Virus record (IMG/VR): IMGVR_UViG_3300025128_000022
Length of the DNA: 20,000 bases
Strand: one strand, 5' to 3'
DNA from: an uncultured virus (IMG/VR IMGVR_UViG_3300025128_000022)
Lineage: Duplodnaviria > Heunggongvirae > Uroviricota > Caudoviricetes
A program made the position numbers and the translations under genes. Positions 1-8,343 of the stretch are shown in pieces. Position 1 is the first letter of the stretch. Every line of letters begins with the position of its first letter. Under the pieces are notes generated by a model that was not told where the DNA came from, made no database searches, and saw only the letters and a list, made by a program, of their open reading frames with translations.

Positions 1-153
1 CCAATGTCCGTTGATGAGTTTCTTTTCAACATCTCCCCAATGATTCTTTACCTTGTCAGACAGGTGTCTGTTAAGATGAGTTCGGAGCTGTCGATTCTGC
101 TCCTTTTCATTTAGATATAGTTGAAATATCTTTTGGTCTTTTTTTATCGCCAT
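1..153 (-). CDS. Hypothetical protein, 5' part only (MAIKKDQKIFQLYLNEKEQNRQLRTHL...), runs off the window
   Basis: Manual translation: ATG at 153 after an A-rich leader, open to position 1; overlaps the end of 107..304. Confidence 0.6.
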   Translation of the reverse strand, partial: MAIKKDQKIFQLYLNEKEQNRQLRTHLNRHLSDKVKNHWGDVEKKLINGHW

Positions 154-304
154 TTTTATTTAATTTTTTATGGTCAACAAAACGCTTTCTGTGATTCACC
201 TTTCCACTATATTTAAAGTAATGGTTTAGGTCAATCACATTGCGTTGTTGCACCTTGTTTGTCTCCTGTTGTAAACGGAGAAATTTAATTATATGTTTGG
301 TCAT
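107..304 (-). CDS. Hypothetical basic protein, 65 aa
   Basis: ORF track; ATGA overlap with the upstream 301..387 ORF. Confidence 0.55.
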   Translation of the reverse strand: MTKHIIKFLRLQQETNKVQQRNVIDLNHYFKYSGKVNHRKRFVDHKKLNKNGDKKRPKDISTISK

Positions 305-387
305 AGGTTACTACGAATCCAAAGGTATATCAAACACAATATTGCACCGATGAATGATACAAAGGTAGCAATATATTTGTCTCTCAT
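301..387 (-). CDS. Small membrane peptide, 28 aa (MRDKYIATFVSFIGAILCLIYLWIRSNL)
   Basis: Manual translation; one hydrophobic helix; fills the gap between 392..604 and 107..304. Confidence 0.55.
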   Translation of the reverse strand: MRDKYIATFVSFIGAILCLIYLWIRSNL

Positions 388-391
388 TTTA

Positions 392-604
392 TTACTCATA
401 ATTTATTTTTATTTTAAATCGGTCAATCAGCATCAGCTCTATCTCATCATACTTTTCGTTAAAAAAATCTTGTGCATGTTCTGTATAGCTAAAGCAATCA
501 GACTCTTTATCATGCACCCAAGTTGCTTCACCAAATCTTTCAGTAGTAATTAGACAAGCAACCTCGCATACCACTTCCTTAAATACTTCGTTAGATATTC
601 CCAT
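392..604 (-). CDS. Hypothetical acidic phage protein, 70 aa
   Basis: ORF track; AACTATG start context; tight packing. Confidence 0.75.
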   Translation of the reverse strand: MGISNEVFKEVVCEVACLITTERFGEATWVHDKESDCFSYTEHAQDFFNEKYDEIELMLIDRFKIKINYE

Positions 605-606
605 AG

Positions 607-783
607 TTATTTTTTATAATGTTCTCTATATAAATCGGCTCTGTATGATATTTCACTACTACTTATTAATACATTAGTATCGTTATTTACTTCTATATAG
701 ACACTCGTTTTGTCGGTGTCTGCCCACGCTACTATATCGTTCATTTCAAACCATCTAATAGCATCTTTTGTTTCCTCTATCAT
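607..783 (-). CDS. Hypothetical protein, 58 aa (MIEETKDAIRWFEMNDIVAWADTDK...)
   Basis: Manual translation; AACTATG start; stop 2 nt before the next ATG. Confidence 0.7.
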   Translation of the reverse strand: MIEETKDAIRWFEMNDIVAWADTDKTSVYIEVNNDTNVLISSSEISYRADLYREHYKK

Positions 784-789
784 AGTTAT

Positions 790-957
790 TTATTTATTTC
801 CTAATACTTTATCAATTACTCTTTCAGCATCTTCACACCCCTCCACCATTTTACTATCAGCATAATCAAAGAGCGTGTCGTTATGGTCTTCAAGCAACGC
901 CACTTTTGTTTGCAACGCTCTTACTTGTTCGTGTAAAAAATCTATTGTTTCTTGCAT
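790..957 (-). CDS. Hypothetical coiled-coil protein, 55 aa (MQETIDFLHEQVRALQTKVALLEDH...)
   Basis: Manual translation; heptad pattern; tight packing. Confidence 0.7.
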   Translation of the reverse strand: MQETIDFLHEQVRALQTKVALLEDHNDTLFDYADSKMVEGCEDAERVIDKVLGNK

Positions 958-984
958 TTATATTTAATTTTAAATTAATAATAA

Positions 985-1095
985 TAGGCAGAGAGTAGGG
1001 CTACGTTAAACAACTGCGTGGGTTAGCTCTCTTTTAAAAGTTCCACTCCTTTACTTACCTAATTTTATTTGTAACCCTGTGTTACAGGTGTTACA
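985..1095 (-). ncRNA. Candidate structured intergenic RNA of unknown class
   Basis: Hairpin UGUAAC(A)CCUG/CAGGGUUACA after the 1096 stop, then nested UAGGUA/UGCCUA and GAGAG/CUCUC stems; strand ambiguous. Confidence 0.35.
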
Positions 1096-1452
1096 TTAAT
1101 CAATCAGTTCTATATCAGAGATTTCAATCTCATCTTCCTCGCTATCCTCATCTACTAGCCAAGCCGGAAGAGTATCTCTCTCTTCAAAGATATTGTCTAA
1201 TGTGTAGCTGATTTCATTGTGGTCAATGAGTTCTTGAATAAATACATTCCCCCAATACTTAAGGTCATCATAATCGGAGAACATCCACTCTGCAAACCTT
1301 TTGCGAGTAATTGTGTATCTCTTTTTTGAATGTGATTTTGTTACATGCTCTTCTACTTTCTTTAAGTAGTCGTTCCAAGTATAAGGGATGTCTCCCAATA
1401 ATTCTCTGTGTCTCTTTTTTTGCTCTAGACCGAGCCACCTTTTTTCTCTCAT
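1096..1452 (-). CDS. Hypothetical protein with acidic C-terminus, 118 aa
   Basis: ORF track; ATGA overlap with 1449..1706. Confidence 0.8.
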   Translation of the reverse strand: MREKRWLGLEQKKRHRELLGDIPYTWNDYLKKVEEHVTKSHSKKRYTITRKRFAEWMFSDYDDLKYWGNVFIQELIDHNEISYTLDNIFEERDTLPAWLVDEDSEEDEIEISDIELID

Positions 1453-1706
1453 AATTTTCTTGATTTTAGTTTATAATTATCTTCAGCTACGTCTTTAAGA
1501 ACTCCCCATATATGTTCTATTGTACAGGGATGTTCCATTACCTCAACAAGTAACTCCATAGCTGTATCTGAATCCGTATCATACAATTCTTGTACGTCAA
1601 ATACATTCCATAAGTTAGCTGTTTGGTAGCCGTTTCTTTCAAGGATTACTTTAGCATCGTGTATCCTCTCGTAGCTAGATTCATACTTTTTAAAAGTGTG
1701 TTCCAT
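1449..1706 (-). CDS. Hypothetical phage protein, 85 aa
   Basis: ORF track; AACTATG start. Confidence 0.8.
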   Translation of the reverse strand: MEHTFKKYESSYERIHDAKVILERNGYQTANLWNVFDVQELYDTDSDTAMELLVEVMEHPCTIEHIWGVLKDVAEDNYKLKSRKL

Positions 1707-1716
1707 AGTTTTTGAT

Positions 1717-2268
1717 TTAGTTATTAATTACTCTTACTCTTTTCGCATTCCCCTCGCCTTGTTCAATAGAAAAGATATCGCCATATACTTCTAACGTCTT
1801 ATCCAATACATCAAAAGCTCGATATACTTTTATGATTGTCGACTTCTCTTCAATCCATTCTTTTTCTTCACCATTACGCACCCTAATCGTTTGGAGGTGT
1901 GCAGTTATGACTCCGGCATCTTCAACATCCTCACCACTAAATCTTATCTTACCTTTAAGATAAATTCCTTTAGGTTGGAGAAAGTCAGAGACTATAAACT
2001 TAAGCCAATTAACATATTGATAAAACTTTTCAGCTCCGTTCCACGCTAAACAATGAATGTCGGTTATGCCGTGTTCAACATCGTCAATGATTTCCCATTT
2101 ATTATATATTGATGGAGCTTTCTCTAGACCTCCTCGATAGTCGCCGGAGTATTCACCTGTGGTGTCGTGCCTGTCGTTTAGCCAAACTTGATTATACTCA
2201 TCAAGTTCATCTTGTGTTAACCTTCTTGATAATGCCATCAGTCCGGTAAAATTGGTTGTGTAACCCAT
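1717..2268 (-). CDS. Phage hypothetical protein, 183 aa (MGYTTNFTG...WNGAEKFYQYVNWL...GED)
   Basis: ORF track; AACATTATG start; motif pattern recalled from uncharacterised phage proteins. Confidence 0.85.
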   Translation of the reverse strand: MGYTTNFTGLMALSRRLTQDELDEYNQVWLNDRHDTTGEYSGDYRGGLEKAPSIYNKWEIIDDVEHGITDIHCLAWNGAEKFYQYVNWLKFIVSDFLQPKGIYLKGKIRFSGEDVEDAGVITAHLQTIRVRNGEEKEWIEEKSTIIKVYRAFDVLDKTLEVYGDIFSIEQGEGNAKRVRVINN

Positions 2269-2300
2269 AATGTTTAATATTTAATTATAATTTAATTTAG

Positions 2301-2329
2301 TGAACACTTTGAAATCTTGTTCAGGATTT
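2301..2329 (-). ncRNA. H-type pseudoknot motif, copy A
   Basis: AAAUC-CUGAACAA-GAUUU-CAAAG-UGUUCA; loop UGAACA pairs with the downstream UGUUCA. Confidence 0.7.
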
Positions 2330-2332
2330 TAG

Positions 2333-2451
2333 AAAGCAGACGAGGAATCGAACCTCTATATTAATAACCTAACGTCTTGTGTCAAATTGATAAGGGAGTT
2401 ATGAGTCTCCTTATCTAAAACCACTTCCGAGCACCTTGCTATCATCTGCTT
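2333..2451 (-). ncRNA. tRNA-like RNA (about 118 nt) with an expanded interior
   Basis: Acceptor-like stem AAGCAGA/UCUGCUU; T-arm GAGG-UUCGAUU-CCUC; D-like AGC-AAGGU-GCU; internal hairpin with loop ACUCAUAA; no encoded CCA. Confidence 0.6.
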
Positions 2452-2459
2452 AACATTTG

Positions 2460-2491
2460 CAATAATACGAATTAATAAATTAATAAACAAA
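2460..2491 (-). promoter_or_regulatory. Bacteroidetes-type sigma70 promoter (-33/-7)
   Basis: TTTG-N20-TATTATTG (one mismatch to TAnnTTTG), 8 nt upstream of the tRNA-like RNA. Confidence 0.65.
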
Positions 2492-2509
2492 TTTTAGACG
2501 AACTTTTTT

Positions 2510-3223
2510 TTATTGCTCCGGTTTATAATCCGGATTTGGAGCGTTGTCAGTCGTCAAAACTTGTAGCATAATGGCATCCACAAATTGCTGTAAGATGTGT
2601 CCATACTTCTCATCAAAGCTATGGTCTTCTCTCCAATTATTTAGCCACCTTTTAAATTCTCGTAGCATAATTGTATTGGTCATAAATCTATCCATCCAAT
2701 TAAGCATATCTTGATAGTAACGAGTTACTATATACTCCTCGTGAATGGTGCAGTTGCCACCACAATAGGAGCAGTCTTCAGCTATCTCCTCAATCTCGCC
2801 ATCGTCATCTTCCTCTTCGTAATACTCCCAACCACTACCACCACACTCACAACAATCCTGAAATACTTCCTCGATGACATTGCAATTGCCATTATTATAA
2901 TAGTCGTAGTAGAATCTACTAGCAATACGAATCAGCTCTCCATTAATGGTTTCGGCTTCAGCAGATTTTGGTACTAGTTTTTTATAAAGCTCATCATACT
3001 CTTTTTGATAAGCACCCTCATTGTTCCAATAGGTTTTTCCTAAAGGTGTTGATTTGCCGTGATGTTCAGCTGTCTTTTCCATCCATTTGCACCAATCGGC
3101 TAAAGTTTGTCGAGCATCAATTTTGCTCATACCGAATCTTTTGATTAGGTAGGGTGTCGCACCGAACATATTCGTCTCGCCGGACATCTGCAATTCGCAG
3201 AGATAATTAAAATGTGTGTTCAT
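2510..3223 (-). CDS. Multi-domain phage protein with an inserted DnaJ-type zinc finger, 237 aa
   Basis: CECGGSG and CSYCGGNC motifs flank an acidic loop; N-terminal SGETNMFGATPYL module; AACATTATG start. Confidence 0.85.
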   Translation of the reverse strand: MNTHFNYLCELQMSGETNMFGATPYLIKRFGMSKIDARQTLADWCKWMEKTAEHHGKSTPLGKTYWNNEGAYQKEYDELYKKLVPKSAEAETINGELIRIASRFYYDYYNNGNCNVIEEVFQDCCECGGSGWEYYEEEDDDGEIEEIAEDCSYCGGNCTIHEEYIVTRYYQDMLNWMDRFMTNTIMLREFKRWLNNWREDHSFDEKYGHILQQFVDAIMLQVLTTDNAPNPDYKPEQ

Positions 3224-3248
3224 AATGTTTACATTTTTATTTAATAAA

Positions 3249-3299
3249 TCCGTTTCATCCTTTCGGAATCATCAGGTGTGATACACATCACACTACGGA
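3249..3299 (-). ncRNA. Type III hammerhead ribozyme 1 (GUA site, cleavage between 3294 and 3293)
   Basis: UCCGUA^GUGUGA-UGUGUA-UCACAC-CUGAUGA-UUCC-GAAA-GGAU-GAAACGGA. Confidence 0.85.
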
Positions 3300-3322
3300 G
3301 GGGTAATGAACCCCCCTGTGTA

Positions 3323-3565
3323 TTAACTCACTCTCTCATATTCGTCAAGCCACTCATTAATGTCGTCTTCGTCTAACCAATAGTTAGTAAATTCGTTACC
3401 TTCTAAAATCAATTCTTTGGCTATGTCCATCATCCCATATTTATCATAGAATAATTCTGAATCAGGGTCTTCAATTTCTGTCTGACCTATTTCGTGTAGC
3501 CAACCTATTTCATAACCATCATTGGTTGGTAGGTAGTCAAACACATAGTGTTTAAGTTTTTTCAT
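3323..3565 (-). CDS. Highly acidic hypothetical protein, 80 aa
   Basis: ORF track; AACATTATG start; D/E-rich. Confidence 0.85.
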   Translation of the reverse strand: MKKLKHYVFDYLPTNDGYEIGWLHEIGQTEIEDPDSELFYDKYGMMDIAKELILEGNEFTNYWLDEDDINEWLDEYERVS

Positions 3566-3589
3566 AATGTTATTATTATATTATTAAAT

Positions 3590-3638
3590 CTGTTTCATCT
3601 TTTTAGAATCATCAGCGATAGCACACACTATCGAACAG
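3590..3638 (-). ncRNA. Type III hammerhead ribozyme 2 (GUU site, cleavage between 3634 and 3633)
   Basis: CUGUU^CGAUAG-UGUGUG-CUAUCG-CUGAUGA-UUCU-AAAA-AGAU-GAAACAG. Confidence 0.85.
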
Positions 3639-3665
3639 GAGCAGTTTTAAATCGTACTCAGGATT
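3639..3665 (-). ncRNA. H-type pseudoknot motif, copy B, abutting hammerhead 2
   Basis: AAUC-CUGAGUAC-GAUU-UAAAAC-UGCUC; loop GAGUA pairs with UGCUC. Confidence 0.7.
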
Positions 3666-3677
3666 GTCTGACTGCGT

Positions 3678-4085
3678 CTACTCTATGCAGTATCCGTCAT
3701 CATCGACCTTAATCTCGTGGCTGTCAGAGTGTCCGTTGACTAGCTCTGCGAGGGTTTCATTGTCGATATCATCAATCATATCATCGGTTAAAATATCGGA
3801 TGAGATAGTGGTATTAAAAAGCATACCATCCTCAAACATACTTTGAACCTCTGACATCATCTCATATTCATCGGTGAACAGCTCATCGCAAGGGTAATAA
3901 GCTCCCTTATCTGCGTCTCTTCTGTCGGTGATTATGTAGATGTCAAATCCATCTTTTGAGGTTTCCAAAAGGATGTGAATCTCTGCTCCTGATTCATAAG
4001 GGGTTTCGATTACACTTCCAAATACATCTGTTAGGATGGACTCGATACCCATCTCTCTTAATTCAGTTATTGTTAATTTCTCCAT
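3678..4085 (-). CDS. Highly acidic hypothetical protein, 135 aa
   Basis: ORF track; strong D/E excess. Confidence 0.85.
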   Translation of the reverse strand: MEKLTITELREMGIESILTDVFGSVIETPYESGAEIHILLETSKDGFDIYIITDRRDADKGAYYPCDELFTDEYEMMSEVQSMFEDGMLFNTTISSDILTDDMIDDIDNETLAELVNGHSDSHEIKVDDDGYCIE

Positions 4086-4086
4086 T

Positions 4087-4320
4087 TTAGTTTTTGTTTA
4101 AGTTAGACATTCTTTCTTTGTGTTCTGCGTACAATAGGGACACTATAAGGAACGAACAAAATCCGTATAGACATACACAACCCAACCACACAATAACGCC
4201 GGTAAACGAGCCAATATCGGTTTTTAGGATGTGAATGAATAGACTCCCACATAAAGCTATTATCGGCAAACAAACTAATGCATAGATAATAGACTCTGAA
4301 TAAATTAAAACTTTTTTCAT
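4087..4320 (-). CDS. Small membrane protein with two predicted TM helices, 77 aa
   Basis: Two hydrophobic segments; AACATTATG start. Confidence 0.8.
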   Translation of the reverse strand: MKKVLIYSESIIYALVCLPIIALCGSLFIHILKTDIGSFTGVIVWLGCVCLYGFCSFLIVSLLYAEHKERMSNLNKN

Positions 4321-4346
4321 AATGTTATAAAGTTAAATTAATATTT

Positions 4347-4395
4347 CTGTTTCGTTCTTTTGAACTCATCAGGCAAGGCACACACCTTGCGACAG
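4347..4395 (-). ncRNA. Type III hammerhead ribozyme 3, fully canonical (GUC site, cleavage between 4391 and 4390)
   Basis: CUGUC^GCAAGG-UGUGUG-CCUUGC-CUGAUGA-GUUC-AAAA-GAAC-GAAACAG. Confidence 0.95.
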
Positions 4396-4418
4396 GGGAG
4401 CGGTCAGCTCCCTGTGGT

Positions 4419-4667
4419 CTACTTATCTTCAAGCGTTACGACTGCATCCGGCTTTGATTTTGTCAGAACCTTGTGCATCTTGTTGAAGGTGTTCAGTTTT
4501 GAAACTACTTTCATCAATGCTCTAAACTGATTGGTATTCAGGTCTAATTGCCCAAGCTCGATGGTCTTTAGTTGCGTAATCGTGTTGTCTAATTCATCAG
4601 CGTTGAACTCAACCTGTACCGGCTCACTATACTTGTAGCTGTTAAAATACTTGTCATTCGTTTTCAT
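4419..4667 (-). CDS. Hypothetical protein, 82 aa
   Basis: ORF track; AACATTATG start. Confidence 0.8.
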   Translation of the reverse strand: MKTNDKYFNSYKYSEPVQVEFNADELDNTITQLKTIELGQLDLNTNQFRALMKVVSKLNTFNKMHKVLTKSKPDAVVTLEDK

Positions 4668-4696
4668 AATGTTTGTTGTTTAAGTTAGTAATATTT

Positions 4697-4921
4697 TTAT
4701 CTTTCTTCGTACTCTTTAAAATCTATGCCAATAGATTCGCATAAAAATTTCTCTTCAAACCAAAAAAGGTCGTTTATTTCGCTCTCGGTTGGTGGCTTTT
4801 CGTGATATAAATCCTCAATCGCAAATTGAATTTCTTTTAATTCATTATAAGTAAATTCGTGTTGCTTTGCTCCGCTCCAAAATTTAAAGCTCGTTAAATC
4901 TAAATCTTTAGTGTAATACAT
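4697..4921 (-). CDS. Phage hypothetical protein, 74 aa (MYYTKDLDLTSFKFWSGAK...INDLFWFE); start revised from 4978
   Basis: AACATTATG at 4921; the ORF-track N-terminal extension lies inside hammerhead 4. Confidence 0.85.
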   Translation of the reverse strand: MYYTKDLDLTSFKFWSGAKQHEFTYNELKEIQFAIEDLYHEKPPTESEINDLFWFEEKFLCESIGIDFKEYEER

Positions 4922-4944
4922 AATGTTTGTTATTAAATTTATAA

Positions 4945-4993
4945 TCTGTTTCTGCTTTCGCTTCTTCAGGTAAGGCACACACCTTACGACAGA
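4945..4993 (-). ncRNA. Type III hammerhead ribozyme 4, short stem II variant (GUC site, cleavage between 4988 and 4987)
   Basis: UCUGUC^GUAAGG-UGUGUG-CCUUAC-CUGAAGA-AGC-GAAA-GCA-GAAACAGA. Confidence 0.82.
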
Positions 4994-5023
4994 GAACCTT
5001 TTTATCTCGACTTGTTCAGGTCG
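4994..5023 (-). ncRNA. H-type pseudoknot motif, copy C, abutting hammerhead 4
   Basis: CGAC-CUGAACAA-GUCG-AGAUAAAAAG-GUUC; loop GAAC pairs with GUUC. Confidence 0.7.
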
Positions 5024-5029
5024 GTTTGG

Positions 5030-5092
5030 TTATACTAAAACAATCTCAAACTCTTGAGAAATGTCTTGTATTGCTATATCATATGCATTCAT
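5030..5092 (-). CDS. Possible 20-aa micropeptide (MNAYDIAIQDISQEFEIVLV)
   Basis: Manual translation; AAATTATG start; stop 6 nt before pseudoknot C. Confidence 0.4.
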   Translation of the reverse strand: MNAYDIAIQDISQEFEIVLV

Positions 5093-5113
5093 AATTTTTG
5101 GTTTTATTGGTTA

Positions 5114-5698
5114 TTAAATTCTTTCGATTAATTCTTCTTGCTCTTCGTACTCATAAAGACAATGATTTATAATCATATCATCACACTTGAAGAGCTTCGC
5201 ATCTGTGTAACCTCCTCTGACGTCAGCTCCGTTGTGTATCTGTAACAACAAGTAAGATTCGCCGTTAATCTCTAGCCATCCACCTTGAAGAGTTTGAGAG
5301 AGGTCACTCTCTGCGTTGTAGGTGTTGAAGGTTCTGCCCTCAACGACTTCGTTGCCCTCTTTTAAATCGTCCCACGCTTCGAGAGATACTCCCCACGCTT
5401 CAGAGTCGCCGTTCCAATCTGTTGCACCTGATTGAATTTCATTAAAGTTGTTGCAGATATAATCTAGCTCTAGAGCTGAATCTTCACCGGCTAAAAAATG
5501 GAAGACTGATACTTCTCTCTGTATCCAATCAGATGAATCTTTTTCTATGGTTTCAGGTTGGTCATTCTCGAAATCTGTCAGACTGCGTTTTTGGTTTCTC
5601 TGCCAATGTCTCCCGTCAGTCATACCGGAATCTAGCATGTGTTTACCTGTTGACTCTGTCAACATTTCGTAAATTAATTGTTTTAAATCTGTGTTCAT
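5114..5698 (-). CDS. Acidic phage protein, 194 aa, first gene of the leftward operon
   Basis: ORF track; motifs MLDSG..GRHWQRNQ, NTYN and QIHNGADVRGGYTD recalled from uncharacterised phage proteins. Confidence 0.88.
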   Translation of the reverse strand: MNTDLKQLIYEMLTESTGKHMLDSGMTDGRHWQRNQKRSLTDFENDQPETIEKDSSDWIQREVSVFHFLAGEDSALELDYICNNFNEIQSGATDWNGDSEAWGVSLEAWDDLKEGNEVVEGRTFNTYNAESDLSQTLQGGWLEINGESYLLLQIHNGADVRGGYTDAKLFKCDDMIINHCLYEYEEQEELIERI

Positions 5699-5739
5699 TT
5701 TAGTAAAATTTAAGTGCCTTTCGGCTGTTAATAATACAG

Positions 5740-5747
5740 CAAAGATA
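5740..5747 (-). promoter_or_regulatory. Bacteroidetes-type -7 box (TATCTTTG) for the leftward operon
   Basis: Exact TAnnTTTG 41 nt upstream of ATG 5698; GCC-GAAA-GGC hairpin in the leader (5716-5725); no clear -33 TTTG. Confidence 0.6.
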
Positions 5748-6193
5748 TAAACTTTTTTTTAATTCTCGTATAATTTTAGTTTTATTTTCGTTTAATTTTA
5801 TTTACTTTATGTTAATAACTATGTAAAGCGTTGATAATGAGCAAGTTATATGTTGATAATTCACGCAGATTTATTTAATCTTTTTTGATTGGGTTCGGTT
5901 GCTCTCTTTATTCTTTGTCTATCTGTTACAAATAATAAATAAATGGGGGAAGGTATGGAGGGAATCGAGGGGGTTGTGTGGTGTGGTATAAGGGAAGGAG
6001 GGGAGGAGGTCAACAGGAGGACAGGACACCGGACAAATTTTGTAAAAAATCCGAAAGAAAAAAACAAAATCAATAAGGGGGGTCAAAAATAAATTTGACT
6101 TTTTTTTTGCGGCACACAAACGCATAACGGGGGGGAGTCTAAACAGTACATATAACTAAATAAAATTTTTGTATCTTTACAAAAAAAATTATC

Positions 6194-6729: not shown

Positions 6730-8343
6730 ATGAATCCAATTAAAATGCCATCCGGCTTTAATCCAAAGGAATTATCTTTTGGAACAGAGGGGAGAAATAA
6801 ACTAATCTCCGGTATCACCCAAATCGCAAATGCAGTAAAGAGCACTCTAGGACCTAGAGGGAATACAGTATTGATAGAGTCTCAATATGTAACAGGAGGA
6901 TTAACTGTAACTAAAGACGGAGTAACTGTAGCGAAAGCCGTTGACTTATTAGACCCTGTAGAGAATCTAGCGGTGCGTATGATGAAACAAGCTGCAGACA
7001 ATACAGCATCCTCAGCCGGAGACGGAACAACAACAGCTATCGTATTGACAGAAGAGTTAGTAAAGCAAGGTAACGAGTTAATGGATGAAACCACAAATCG
7101 AGCTGAAGTTCTAAGAGAGATTGTGCGTGAAACCGACAACGTTATTGGAAATTTAAAAAAGGCATCTAAAAAGATTACGAGTAAAAGATTAAAAGATGTA
7201 GCTATTATCTCAGCTAATAATGATAAGACAATAGGTAAAGTAATAGCGGATACATATAAGAAAGTAGGAAAGAACGGAATCGTTACTGTAGAAAAGTCAG
7301 AGTCGAGTGAAACATATAGCGAGACGACTAATGGAATTAAAATAGATAGAGGATGGACTTCACCTTTATTCGTTAACAATCAAAAGAAAGATGAAAGTAT
7401 ATTAGAAAATGTGCATGTGCTTGTAAGCGATGCAGAGATTACTAATGTATTAGCGATTGAAGGAATATTAAAACCAATCATTAATGAACAAAAGAAATTA
7501 TTAATTATTGCACCTATGTCTGTTAATGTAGTAAACACTCTTGCAGCTAATGTTGTAAAGAATGGATTACAGCTTTGCGTAATAGGTCCTCCATCATTTG
7601 GATATAAACAACACGAGCTTATGCAAGATATAGCAGTTTCGGTTGGTGCTAAATACTTTTCAGAAAAAACAGGAGATGACTTATCCTTAATTACATTTGC
7701 TGATTTAGGTCATGCAGATAAATGTATAATAGGACAAGAGTCTTCTATATTAATAAAATCATCTACCGTACAAACTGATGTAAGTGAAAGAGTAAATCAA
7801 TTATGGGAAGCTCATAAGATTACAACAAAGAAAGAAGATAAAGAGTTTATACTATCACGCATTGCATCACTCAGCGGTGGTATTGGTGTAATATATGTAG
7901 GAGGGCAAACTGATATTGAGCAAAAAGAATTGTTCGATAGAGTAGATGATGCTGTATGTGCGGTGCGTTCTGCACTACAAGAAGGAATATTACCGGGAGG
8001 TGGAATAGCATTGTACGACATTGCAGCAGAACATAAACCTAATTCTGAAAAAAATTCCAAAAAAATTGCTGACGCAATTTTATATAATTCTCTCATTGCT
8101 CCATTACGTCAGATTTTAGAGAATGCAGGACTAGACCCTGAAGAACTATATTGTTGTAAAAAGGAACAAGGAAAAGGTTATGATGTTAAGAATGAAAAAT
8201 GGGGGAGCATGATTGATATGGGAATTATTGACCCAATGAAAGTAACTAAAAGTGCCTTACAAAATGCAGTTTCAGTTGCAGTAACAATTTTATCAACTAA
8301 CGCCATTATAACTATGGCGAGAACATATGAGGGTAAAAATTAA
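6730..8343 (+). CDS. groEL: Phage-encoded group I chaperonin GroEL (Cpn60), 537 aa
   Basis: TLGPRG, TKDGVTVAK, AGDGTTTA, EGILPGGG and GIIDP motifs; no C-terminal GGM tail. Confidence 0.97.
   Translation: MNPIKMPSGFNPKELSFGTEGRNKLISGITQIANAVKSTLGPRGNTVLIESQYVTGGLTVTKDGVTVAKAVDLLDPVENLAVRMMKQAADNTASSAGDGTTTAIVLTEELVKQGNELMDETTNRAEVLREIVRETDNVIGNLKKASKKITSKRLKDVAIISANNDKTIGKVIADTYKKVGKNGIVTVEKSESSETYSETTNGIKIDRGWTSPLFVNNQKKDESILENVHVLVSDAEITNVLAIEGILKPIINEQKKLLIIAPMSVNVVNTLAANVVKNGLQLCVIGPPSFGYKQHELMQDIAVSVGAKYFSEKTGDDLSLITFADLGHADKCIIGQESSILIKSSTVQTDVSERVNQLWEAHKITTKKEDKEFILSRIASLSGGIGVIYVGGQTDIEQKELFDRVDDAVCAVRSALQEGILPGGGIALYDIAAEHKPNSEKNSKKIADAILYNSLIAPLRQILENAGLDPEELYCCKKEQGKGYDVKNEKWGSMIDMGIIDPMKVTKSALQNAVSVAVTILSTNAIITMARTYEGKN

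Follow-up and report, generated by a model that had tools for sequence, protein, structure and literature searches.

What is the small folded RNA that recurs between the genes of an uncultured Caudoviricetes virus, and what does it do there? The question arises from a 20,000-nucleotide (nt) stretch of DNA (IMG/VR record IMGVR_UViG_3300025128_000022), here called the window, which carries three minus-strand copies (c1, c2 and c3; coordinates in the table) of what the preliminary description took to be a recurrent, covarying H-type pseudoknot. All three copies, with their sequences as first read, fit a single fold of this kind. The motif is a classical H-type pseudoknot (the knot hereafter) of 27-31 nt. 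Its stem 1 comprises 4-5 bp with a closing C-G pair and carries the loop CUNANNAM, in which positions 3-7 are paired by the 3' strand to form a stem 2 of 5-6 bp. The first loop, 1-2 nt (C, U), crosses stem 2, the junction is a single nucleotide, and an A-rich linker of 5-6 nt, of the (U)AAAAC type, runs along stem 1. Copy c2 has the canonical form, while c3 is the weakest, forming four of five stem 2 pairs; the c3 copy is also present in viral contig G002. In c1 and c3 alike, the linker ends in G rather than C. Minimum-free-energy (MFE) folding of the c1 region gave a z-score of -0.41, with ViennaRNA, which cannot model a knot, drawing stem 2 alone.

Chance is ruled out as the origin of the copies by three lines of evidence: shuffles, a scan blind to pairing, and pairing in an alignment. 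Firstly, a descriptor derived from the window copies, and hence post hoc for the window, matches three times there against 0.04 expected, and none of 300 dinucleotide shuffles reaches three. The same descriptor finds four more copies in 20 other loci, one before a hammerhead ribozyme in G003 and the others before a tRNA-like minihelix in Polaribacter phage P12002S and two relatives; the G003 and P12002S-group copies show compensatory changes in stem 2. Secondly, IMG/VR was scanned with the pattern CCTNANNAMGNNNTAAAACTGNT, which fixes the loop and linker bases and leaves three stem 1 pairs and two to three stem 2 pairs free. This pairing-blind scan returned at least 133 matches in viral contigs. 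Among the 133 listed, 106 pair perfectly (4/4 and 5/5 pairs) and 19 more form 3/4 and 5/5; by our own arithmetic, perfect pairing would arise by chance in ~0.4% of matches, or about 0.5 of 133. Finally, 109 distinct matches, unfiltered for pairing, were aligned with eight other copies, giving 117 sequences in which 90.9% of alignment cells are paired. Shuffles give 76.8% (0/500 reach the observed value), and sliding the partners out of register leaves 26-35%.

The same alignment contains compensatory changes in both stems, which bears out the covariation first claimed. In stem 1, columns 4-17 hold AU 64 times, GC 36, UA 13 and CG 3, with one sequence unpaired, and columns 5-16 hold UA 61, AU 46 and CG 7. 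In stem 2, columns 9-32 hold GC 74, AU 20, GU 13 and UA 3, and columns 11-30 hold GC 103, AU 11, GU 2 and CG 1, with none unpaired. A covariance model built from the alignment (R1) separates real copies, at 22.6 bits or more, from noise, at 15.8 bits or less, over 231 kb. The search with such a model that had been proposed recovers exactly c1, c2 and c3 in the window, all three of which belonged to the training set, with a best noise match of 9.9 bits.

The knot appears to be undescribed so far, in keeping with the early statement that no named family could be assigned. Rfam 15, with the RAGATH motifs that it contains, gives no gathering-score match to it in the window, and at E-values up to 5-10 no match overlaps the knot in the window or in eight canonical loci (3.7 kb). 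R1 scores canonical-type copies at 41-51 bits, so a catalogued model would have shown up. Full-text literature searches, whose coverage stopped short of RAGATH motifs outside Rfam and of the tables supplementing Fremin et al. 2023 (PMC10690425), returned no description of the motif; those tables may include it among ~8,500 unnamed candidates. Hammerhead arrays flanking phage genes, by comparison, are already known (PMC3088659).

The distribution of the motif is wide. Cultured phages that carry it are Polaribacter P12002S, cyanophage S-RIM4, Paracoccus ParKuw1 and ParMal1, and Mycobacterium Labelle, whose hosts span Bacteroidota, Cyanobacteria, Alphaproteobacteria and Actinobacteria; uncultured phage contigs with the motif number in the hundreds. 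Scanning 185,579 species genomes gave at least 120 pattern matches, and 26 of the 120 listed pair perfectly; where the upstream open reading frame (ORF) of these is readable, it resembles a prophage gene, for example with a head-morphogenesis-type C terminus. Several copies may share one genome: a complete 108-kb phage has seven, all between 7 and 21 kb, and G006 has four within 2 kb, in both cases clustered among small genes. Loop and linker bases are almost constant among phages whose hosts are far apart; part of this constancy comes from the search pattern, but c1, c3 and the cultured-phage copies, too, vary only modestly. Of 105 canonical copies, 85 have A and 20 have C as the junction base, while S-RIM4 and Labelle have U. 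Matches of the Polaribacter knot to Staphylococcus and Streptococcus phages in a blastn search proved to be A/T-rich promoter-like DNA and were discarded. Separately, in five loci (L413, L416, L432 and L513 from four Aminicenantes assemblies, and L426 from Eubacteriales) the knot follows an ORF with a Cys-x-x-Cys-like tail; in some of this group the ORF seems to stop at a UGA within the knot loop, and in L413, L426 and L432 an intrinsic-terminator-like hairpin lies downstream of the knot.

The constant neighbour of the knot is a stop codon upstream, not a ribozyme downstream. Context was counted over the 105 distinct canonical copies among the IMG/VR matches listed, and in 96 of them a same-strand ORF (at least 40 open codons) ends no more than 80 nt before the knot, compared with 48/105 in a mirrored opposite-strand control whose distribution is flat and without a peak. 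The distance from stop to stem 1 is 4-9 nt in 62 of the 96 and 5-8 nt in 58, and it falls below 4 nt in two. This spacing has no 3-nt periodicity and no frame preference. The stops are TAA in 75 cases, TAG in 16 and TGA in five, and the in-frame extension past them has a median of seven codons. The genes upstream show no relationship among themselves, ranging from DUF932 and GP88 to head-morphogenesis-like genes and unknowns, and this variety, together with the clustering among small genes, marks the knot as general rather than gene-specific punctuation. Within the window, c2 begins 12 nt after the TAG of ORF 3678-4085, and c1 lies 5 nt after a tRNA-like element and 32 nt before an ATG at 2268. 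The 20-codon micro-ORF upstream of c3 stops 6 nt short of it, at the typical distance between stop and knot, which hints that the micro-ORF is translated.

Downstream neighbours are more varied. A hammerhead core within 45 nt follows three of the 105 copies, a tRNA 32, an ORF start (at 13-56 nt) 36, and something else the remaining 34. The tRNAs are on the same strand as the knot, none on the opposite strand having been found among the copies examined, and their spacer is 4 nt in 14 of 32, 3-8 nt in 25 and 3-14 nt over the full range. Hammerheads, where present, start 0-6 nt after the knot. A cutting site often lies within a few nucleotides downstream. The preliminary description had the knot fused to ribozymes and to the tRNA-like RNA; this holds for the window, where no spacer separates c2 and c3 from the 5' strand of hammerhead stem III and c1 closely follows the tRNA-like element, but it is not supported as a general rule, 102 of the 105 canonical copies having no ribozyme. 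The base just after the knot (+1) is A in 57/105, and T makes up 40-58% at positions +5 to +8. A U tract directly after a G/C-rich hairpin is the mark of an intrinsic terminator, yet the stems here are A/U-rich and the 32 tRNA-linked copies meet the tRNA within 3-14 nt. The commonest 4-mer after the knot is ACCA (9/105; ACC in 15/105), which none of the three window copies has.

Several side observations concern these downstream regions. The tRNA is tRNA-Asp(GUC) in 27 of the 32 cases, usually 4 nt after the knot (loci L280-L401, e.g. L283, L302 and L306), and a DUF932 gene stands upstream in both tRNA-Asp cases checked (L407 and L408). These cases may stem from a single phage lineage, or may point to a genuine connection with a queuosine-bearing tRNA. 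In one group of phage contigs, comprising L307, L311, L323, L339, L348, L364, L380 and L400 as well as L407 (reverse complement, ~694-800), a conserved non-coding region downstream of the knot contains DnaA-box-like words (TTATCCACA / TGTGGATAA) and GATCAC repeats and is possibly a replication origin entered by transcription. Regions with TTATCCACA words are found among the 34 copies that have something else downstream. In L407 (reverse complement, 3270-3374) and L408 (reverse complement, 5848-6062), a conserved hairpin of ~35-50 nt lies between two knots, as if a small RNA were bracketed.

What such an element does is a matter of interpretation. Our preferred reading, which we hold tentatively, is that the knot is a persistent module, placed after the stop codon, which would give the upstream cistron a capped and insulated 3' end. 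It takes up the exonuclease block that the preliminary description listed among its inferences. The position of the knot, just past the stretch covered by a ribosome at the stop codon, would allow it to remain folded while the message is translated. What is shown is the structure, its conservation and its position; in the proposed mechanism, the transcript would be cut just downstream, by a hammerhead at c2 and c3, by RNase P where a tRNA or a tRNA-like element follows, or by a host endonuclease in the A/U-rich spacer. The upstream cistron would then end in the knot and a tail of ~4-7 nt, which, given how RNase II, PNPase and RNase R work, would offer 3' exonucleases too little to start on. 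The knot would also shield the downstream RNA fold from upstream sequence. In the window, its stem 2 is predicted to stack end-on on the short (4-5 bp) stem III of the hammerhead, and plain G/C hairpins fill its place at two further hammerheads, HH-B and HH-D.

Several observations weigh against this reading. Loop and linker bases that are nearly invariant across distant hosts exceed what a mere stabilising hairpin needs and hint at a specific partner. Copy c1 follows the tRNA-like element rather than a stop codon and could, once processed, be left at the 5' end of an RNA. The 36 copies followed only by a start codon, and the 34 with neither tRNA, hammerhead nor nearby ORF start, show no obvious cutting site. 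Some copies have an intrinsic-terminator-like hairpin 10-25 nt downstream, which makes a further 3' cap seem redundant. The knot is also short and A/U-rich, and its resistance to exonucleases is assumed rather than computed.

A bolder conjecture, which we regard as possible but doubtful, is that the knot represents a new functional RNA class whose partner is universal, either docking at the mRNA entrance of the terminating ribosome or acting as a minimal mimic of the tRNA acceptor for RNase P or the CCA-adding enzyme. If this were true, a single 27-nt device would serve phages of almost all bacterial phyla for ending, marking or handing over each cistron of their early transcripts, and operons would have a third form of punctuation in addition to ribozymes and tRNAs.

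Taken on its own, a ribosome-directed role is unlikely. Here the knot would meet the mRNA entrance of a ribosome with the stop codon in its A site, and would tune termination, recycling or re-initiation at the following cistron, or stimulate recoding. The commonest stop-to-knot spacing, 5-8 nt, reproduces the geometry of frameshift and readthrough pseudoknots, which lie 5-9 nt downstream of the recoding site. Knots that withstand unwinding from their 5' side typically have an A-rich linker alongside stem 1, a partner as universal as the ribosome would account for a motif conserved in phages of many phyla, and 36 of the 105 copies have an ORF start 13-56 nt downstream. Neither an extended frame nor a slippery heptamer giving a second product was found at the copies, however, and the short in-frame extension, the lack of frame preference and the predominance of TAA, the least leaky stop codon, all speak against this role. 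Many copies lead into tRNAs or non-coding DNA, and c1 has no ORF in front of it. The plain hairpins that precede related hammerheads show the same spacing by eye, so the distance may reflect tight packing together with avoidance of melting.

We give equally little credence to the knot as a processing signal in itself, whether a tiny self-cleaving RNA or a mimic of the tRNA acceptor helix that RNase P or the CCA-adding enzyme would cut or tail; transcripts would then be punctuated by it much as by hammerheads and tRNAs. The topology, in which a 3' strand pairs with a hairpin loop and leaves a short tail, is that of the plant-virus tRNA-like acceptor pseudoknot; ACCA is the leading 4-mer after the knot and A the leading base, and tRNA-like minihelices occupy equivalent places in the window and in P12002S. 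Yet ACCA is a minority form found mostly in the tRNA-Asp lineage, a second cut would be redundant directly before hammerheads and tRNAs, and avoidance of the first 0-3 nt after stops suggests that the knot has to persist rather than act once. At 27 nt it is also below the size of the known natural self-cleaving classes. The genomic habit is shared with phage hammerhead arrays (PMC3088659). A resemblance to type III toxin-antitoxin RNA antitoxins (ToxI type), in which one pseudoknot unit is repeated head to tail beside an endoribonuclease toxin gene, was not found, the copies being single, dispersed over hundreds to thousands of nt and different in stem 1; toxin genes were not searched for.

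An aptamer for a small molecule or for a conserved phage or host protein, through which the knot would regulate its neighbours, is likewise improbable. The order of hairpin, A-rich tail and tail-loop pairing matches the class I preQ1 riboswitch, and the downstream tRNAs are mostly the queuosine-bearing tRNA-Asp(GUC). In class I preQ1 riboswitches, a junction loop of several nt, located between stem 2 and the 3' strand of stem 1, holds the ligand-pairing C. The single-nucleotide junction of the knot offers no evident pocket, and its last linker base varies. No Rfam riboswitch model matches; the copies do not stand in 5' leaders of queuosine-related genes, with tRNAs, hammerheads, assorted ORFs and non-coding DNA as downstream neighbours and DUF932, GP88 or unassigned proteins upstream or flanking where checked; up to seven copies per genome stand beside unrelated genes; and the tRNA-Asp cases, sharing an upstream DUF932 gene in the two checked, may be one lineage. 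A pseudoknot with many near-invariant bases that is found across many phyla does agree with the criteria for biochemically sophisticated RNAs of Weinberg et al. 2017 (PMC5737381), which would class the knot as likely sophisticated.

Finally, a hammerhead-specific accessory or antitermination element, serving the ribozyme or polymerase read-on, is very improbable: c2 and c3 abut stem III without a spacer, as do the copies at the G003 site and one G006 site, but a ribozyme follows so few canonical copies, ~65 related hammerheads carry a plain G/C hairpin against stem III a few nt after a stop and the knot only at L112 (the G003 site), two of the four G006 knots lack a ribozyme and one is 6 nt from its own, no terminator is regularly placed for the knot to mask, and no evidence was found for the antitermination that the preliminary description had entertained.

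The hammerheads of the window form a setting of their own. The core pattern CUGANGA...GAAAC matches four times between genes against 0.23 expected, and the four elements, HH-A to HH-D in the table, are all type III hammerhead-like. HH-A and HH-C have no match to Rfam Hammerhead_3 even at E-values up to 10; they are supported by the core pattern, by stems identified on inspection and by near-identical cores in viral contigs. The class is common in IMG/VR (loci L002-L124), where ~65 of 77 regex matches look genuine; its stem I carries the loop GUGUGUGC, and the first pair of its stem II is often mismatched (U-U or A-A). Because it scores below the Hammerhead_3 gathering threshold, it is under-annotated. 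A GUGUCUUCAAAGACAC hairpin forms the closed stem III of a type I hammerhead in G003 (L252, ~5370-5435, minus strand). Many type III relatives have this hairpin as a helix of its own, immediately upstream of stem III, which looks like one design naturally permuted. With plain hairpins at the same place and GUGUCUUCAAAGACAC serving as a closed stem III, the occupant of this site, knot or hairpin, is probably stacked on stem III. A search for an A-rich linker followed by a hammerhead found two real sites in 120 stretches in its loose version and two in four in a tighter one. Relatives reached through the 73-aa protein encoded after HH-A (18 loci) mostly have neither hammerhead nor knot in the homologous gap, and both are missing from the closest of them (L254-L259, 71-81% identity), which indicates that these RNA modules are gained and lost quickly.

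Around these modules, small genes lie in a row on the minus strand. Among named relatives, Polaribacter phage P12002S is the nearest at the DNA level (72% identity over 245 nt), and the nearest record, G001, lacks this region. The identity of the tRNA-like element as a tRNA was not confirmed: ARAGORN makes no tRNA call on it, its MFE fold lacks the T arm, and the best Rfam score is 15.2 bits to tRNA-Sec (E 1.6), leaving a canonical T arm and an acceptor-like stem. Similar elements, also uncalled by ARAGORN, occur in two intergenic gaps of P12002S (L253, ~395-440 and 1421-1476). Such elements may serve as processing sites for RNase P or RNase Z.

Table. Features of the window; minus-strand elements are written 5' to 3' as RNA.
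Feature	Position	Strand	Composition	Remarks
Small-gene row	1-6100	minus	start context AACAUUAUG	
tRNA-like element	2335-2450	minus	acceptor-like stem AGCAGAU/GUCUGCU, 7 bp (GUCUGCU 2341-2335); T arm GAGG-UUCGAUU-CCUC	~70-nt insert at the place of the anticodon arm, with a CAU-containing loop
c1	2301-2329	minus	AAAUC CUGAACAA GAUUU CAAAG UGUUCA (2329->2301); stem 1 AAAUC/GAUUU, linker CAAAG, stem 2 UGAACA/UGUUCA	descriptor match; R1 36.2 bits
HH-D	3247-3316	minus		Rfam Hammerhead_3 28.7 bits (3247-3301), below gathering
HH-D plain hairpin	3316-3298	minus	G/C hairpin	abuts stem III
HH-C, type III hammerhead-like	3590-3638	minus	core CUGAUGA...GAAA; stem III CUGU/ACAG (CUGU 3638-3635), U17, stem I CGAUAG/CUAUCG	directly 3' of c2; stems by inspection
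c2, canonical form	3639-3665	minus	AAUC CUGAGUAC GAUU UAAAAC UGCUC (3665->3639); stem 1 AAUC/GAUU, linker UAAAAC, stem 2 GAGUA/UGCUC	descriptor match; R1 44 bits
ORF upstream of c2	3678-4085			ends in TAG
HH-B	4344-4412	minus		Rfam Hammerhead_3 37.7 bits (4344-4398), gathering score 48.5
HH-B plain hairpin	4412-4396	minus	GGGAG/CUCCC	6 nt after stop 4421-4419; abuts stem III
HH-A, type III hammerhead-like	4945-4993	minus	core CUGAAGA...GAAA; stem III UCUGU/ACAGA (UCUGU 4993-4989), C17, stem I GUAAGG/CCUUAC	directly 3' of c3; stems by inspection
c3, weakest copy	4994-5023	minus	CGAC CUGAACAA GUCG AGAUAAAAA GGUUC (5023->4994); stem 1 CGAC/GUCG, A-rich linker 9-10 nt, stem 2 GAAC/GUUC, 4 bp	descriptor match; R1 25.1 bits
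Micro-ORF	5030-5092	minus	ATG 5092, TAA 5032-5030	20 codons
GroEL-type chaperonin	6730-8343	plus		Pfam Cpn60_TCP1, E 1.2e-54; divergent from the small-gene module

The motif combines strong covariation and near-invariant loop bases with absence from Rfam and from the literature searched. It marks cistron ends in phage early operons, where the gene-by-gene cutting, stabilisation and translation of such long transcripts are largely unexplained; what phage hammerhead arrays are for has been an open question since 2011. A compact barrier to nucleases or helicases, if the knot is one, would be a small insulator part for synthetic operons, and a specific partner, if one exists, would make it a new class of regulatory RNA. 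A covariance model would also improve the annotation of phage genomes.

Known systems resemble the knot in form or in position. The class I preQ1 riboswitch (RF00522) has the same small H-type architecture, its A-rich 3' tail lying along stem 1 before it pairs with the loop of the hairpin; unlike it, the motif matches no model, has a 1-nt junction and a longer stem 2 (5-6 bp), and follows ORFs in many copies per genome rather than standing ahead of que genes. In the TYMV-type acceptor pseudoknot and the tobamovirus upstream pseudoknot domain, a 3' strand also pairs with a hairpin loop and leaves a short tail, and the motif, too, may adjoin a tRNA-like element (the window, P12002S); it differs from these plant-virus structures in the rarity of ACCA, in lying inside polycistronic transcripts of DNA phages, and in lacking evidence of aminoacylation or CCA addition. 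Among the frameshift and readthrough pseudoknots of RNA viruses, those of the luteovirus and MuLV gag-pol types share its compact H-type fold, a first loop of 1-2 nt starting with C, an A-rich last loop and a position 5-8 nt after the A-site codon, whereas the motif has no slippery site or conserved in-frame extension, mostly follows TAA and often precedes tRNA genes.

In position, the knot is closest to elements that stabilise or divide transcripts. REP-type hairpins and the RNase III-processed 3' hairpins of T7 likewise follow a cistron, lie by a processing site and have been proposed as barriers to 3' exonucleases; the knot, whose own barrier role is only proposed, differs in being a sequence-conserved pseudoknot across distant hosts rather than a lineage-specific G/C hairpin. 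In phages, hammerhead arrays stand on either side of individual small genes (Perreault et al. 2011, PMC3088659). This hammerhead punctuation (RF00008) resembles the knot in its several copies per genome, its place on the coding strand and its location in the gaps of rows of small genes, most of them early. The knot lacks a catalytic core, is mostly found without a ribozyme and keeps a minimum distance from the stop codon, and in the window the two kinds of punctuation are physically joined.

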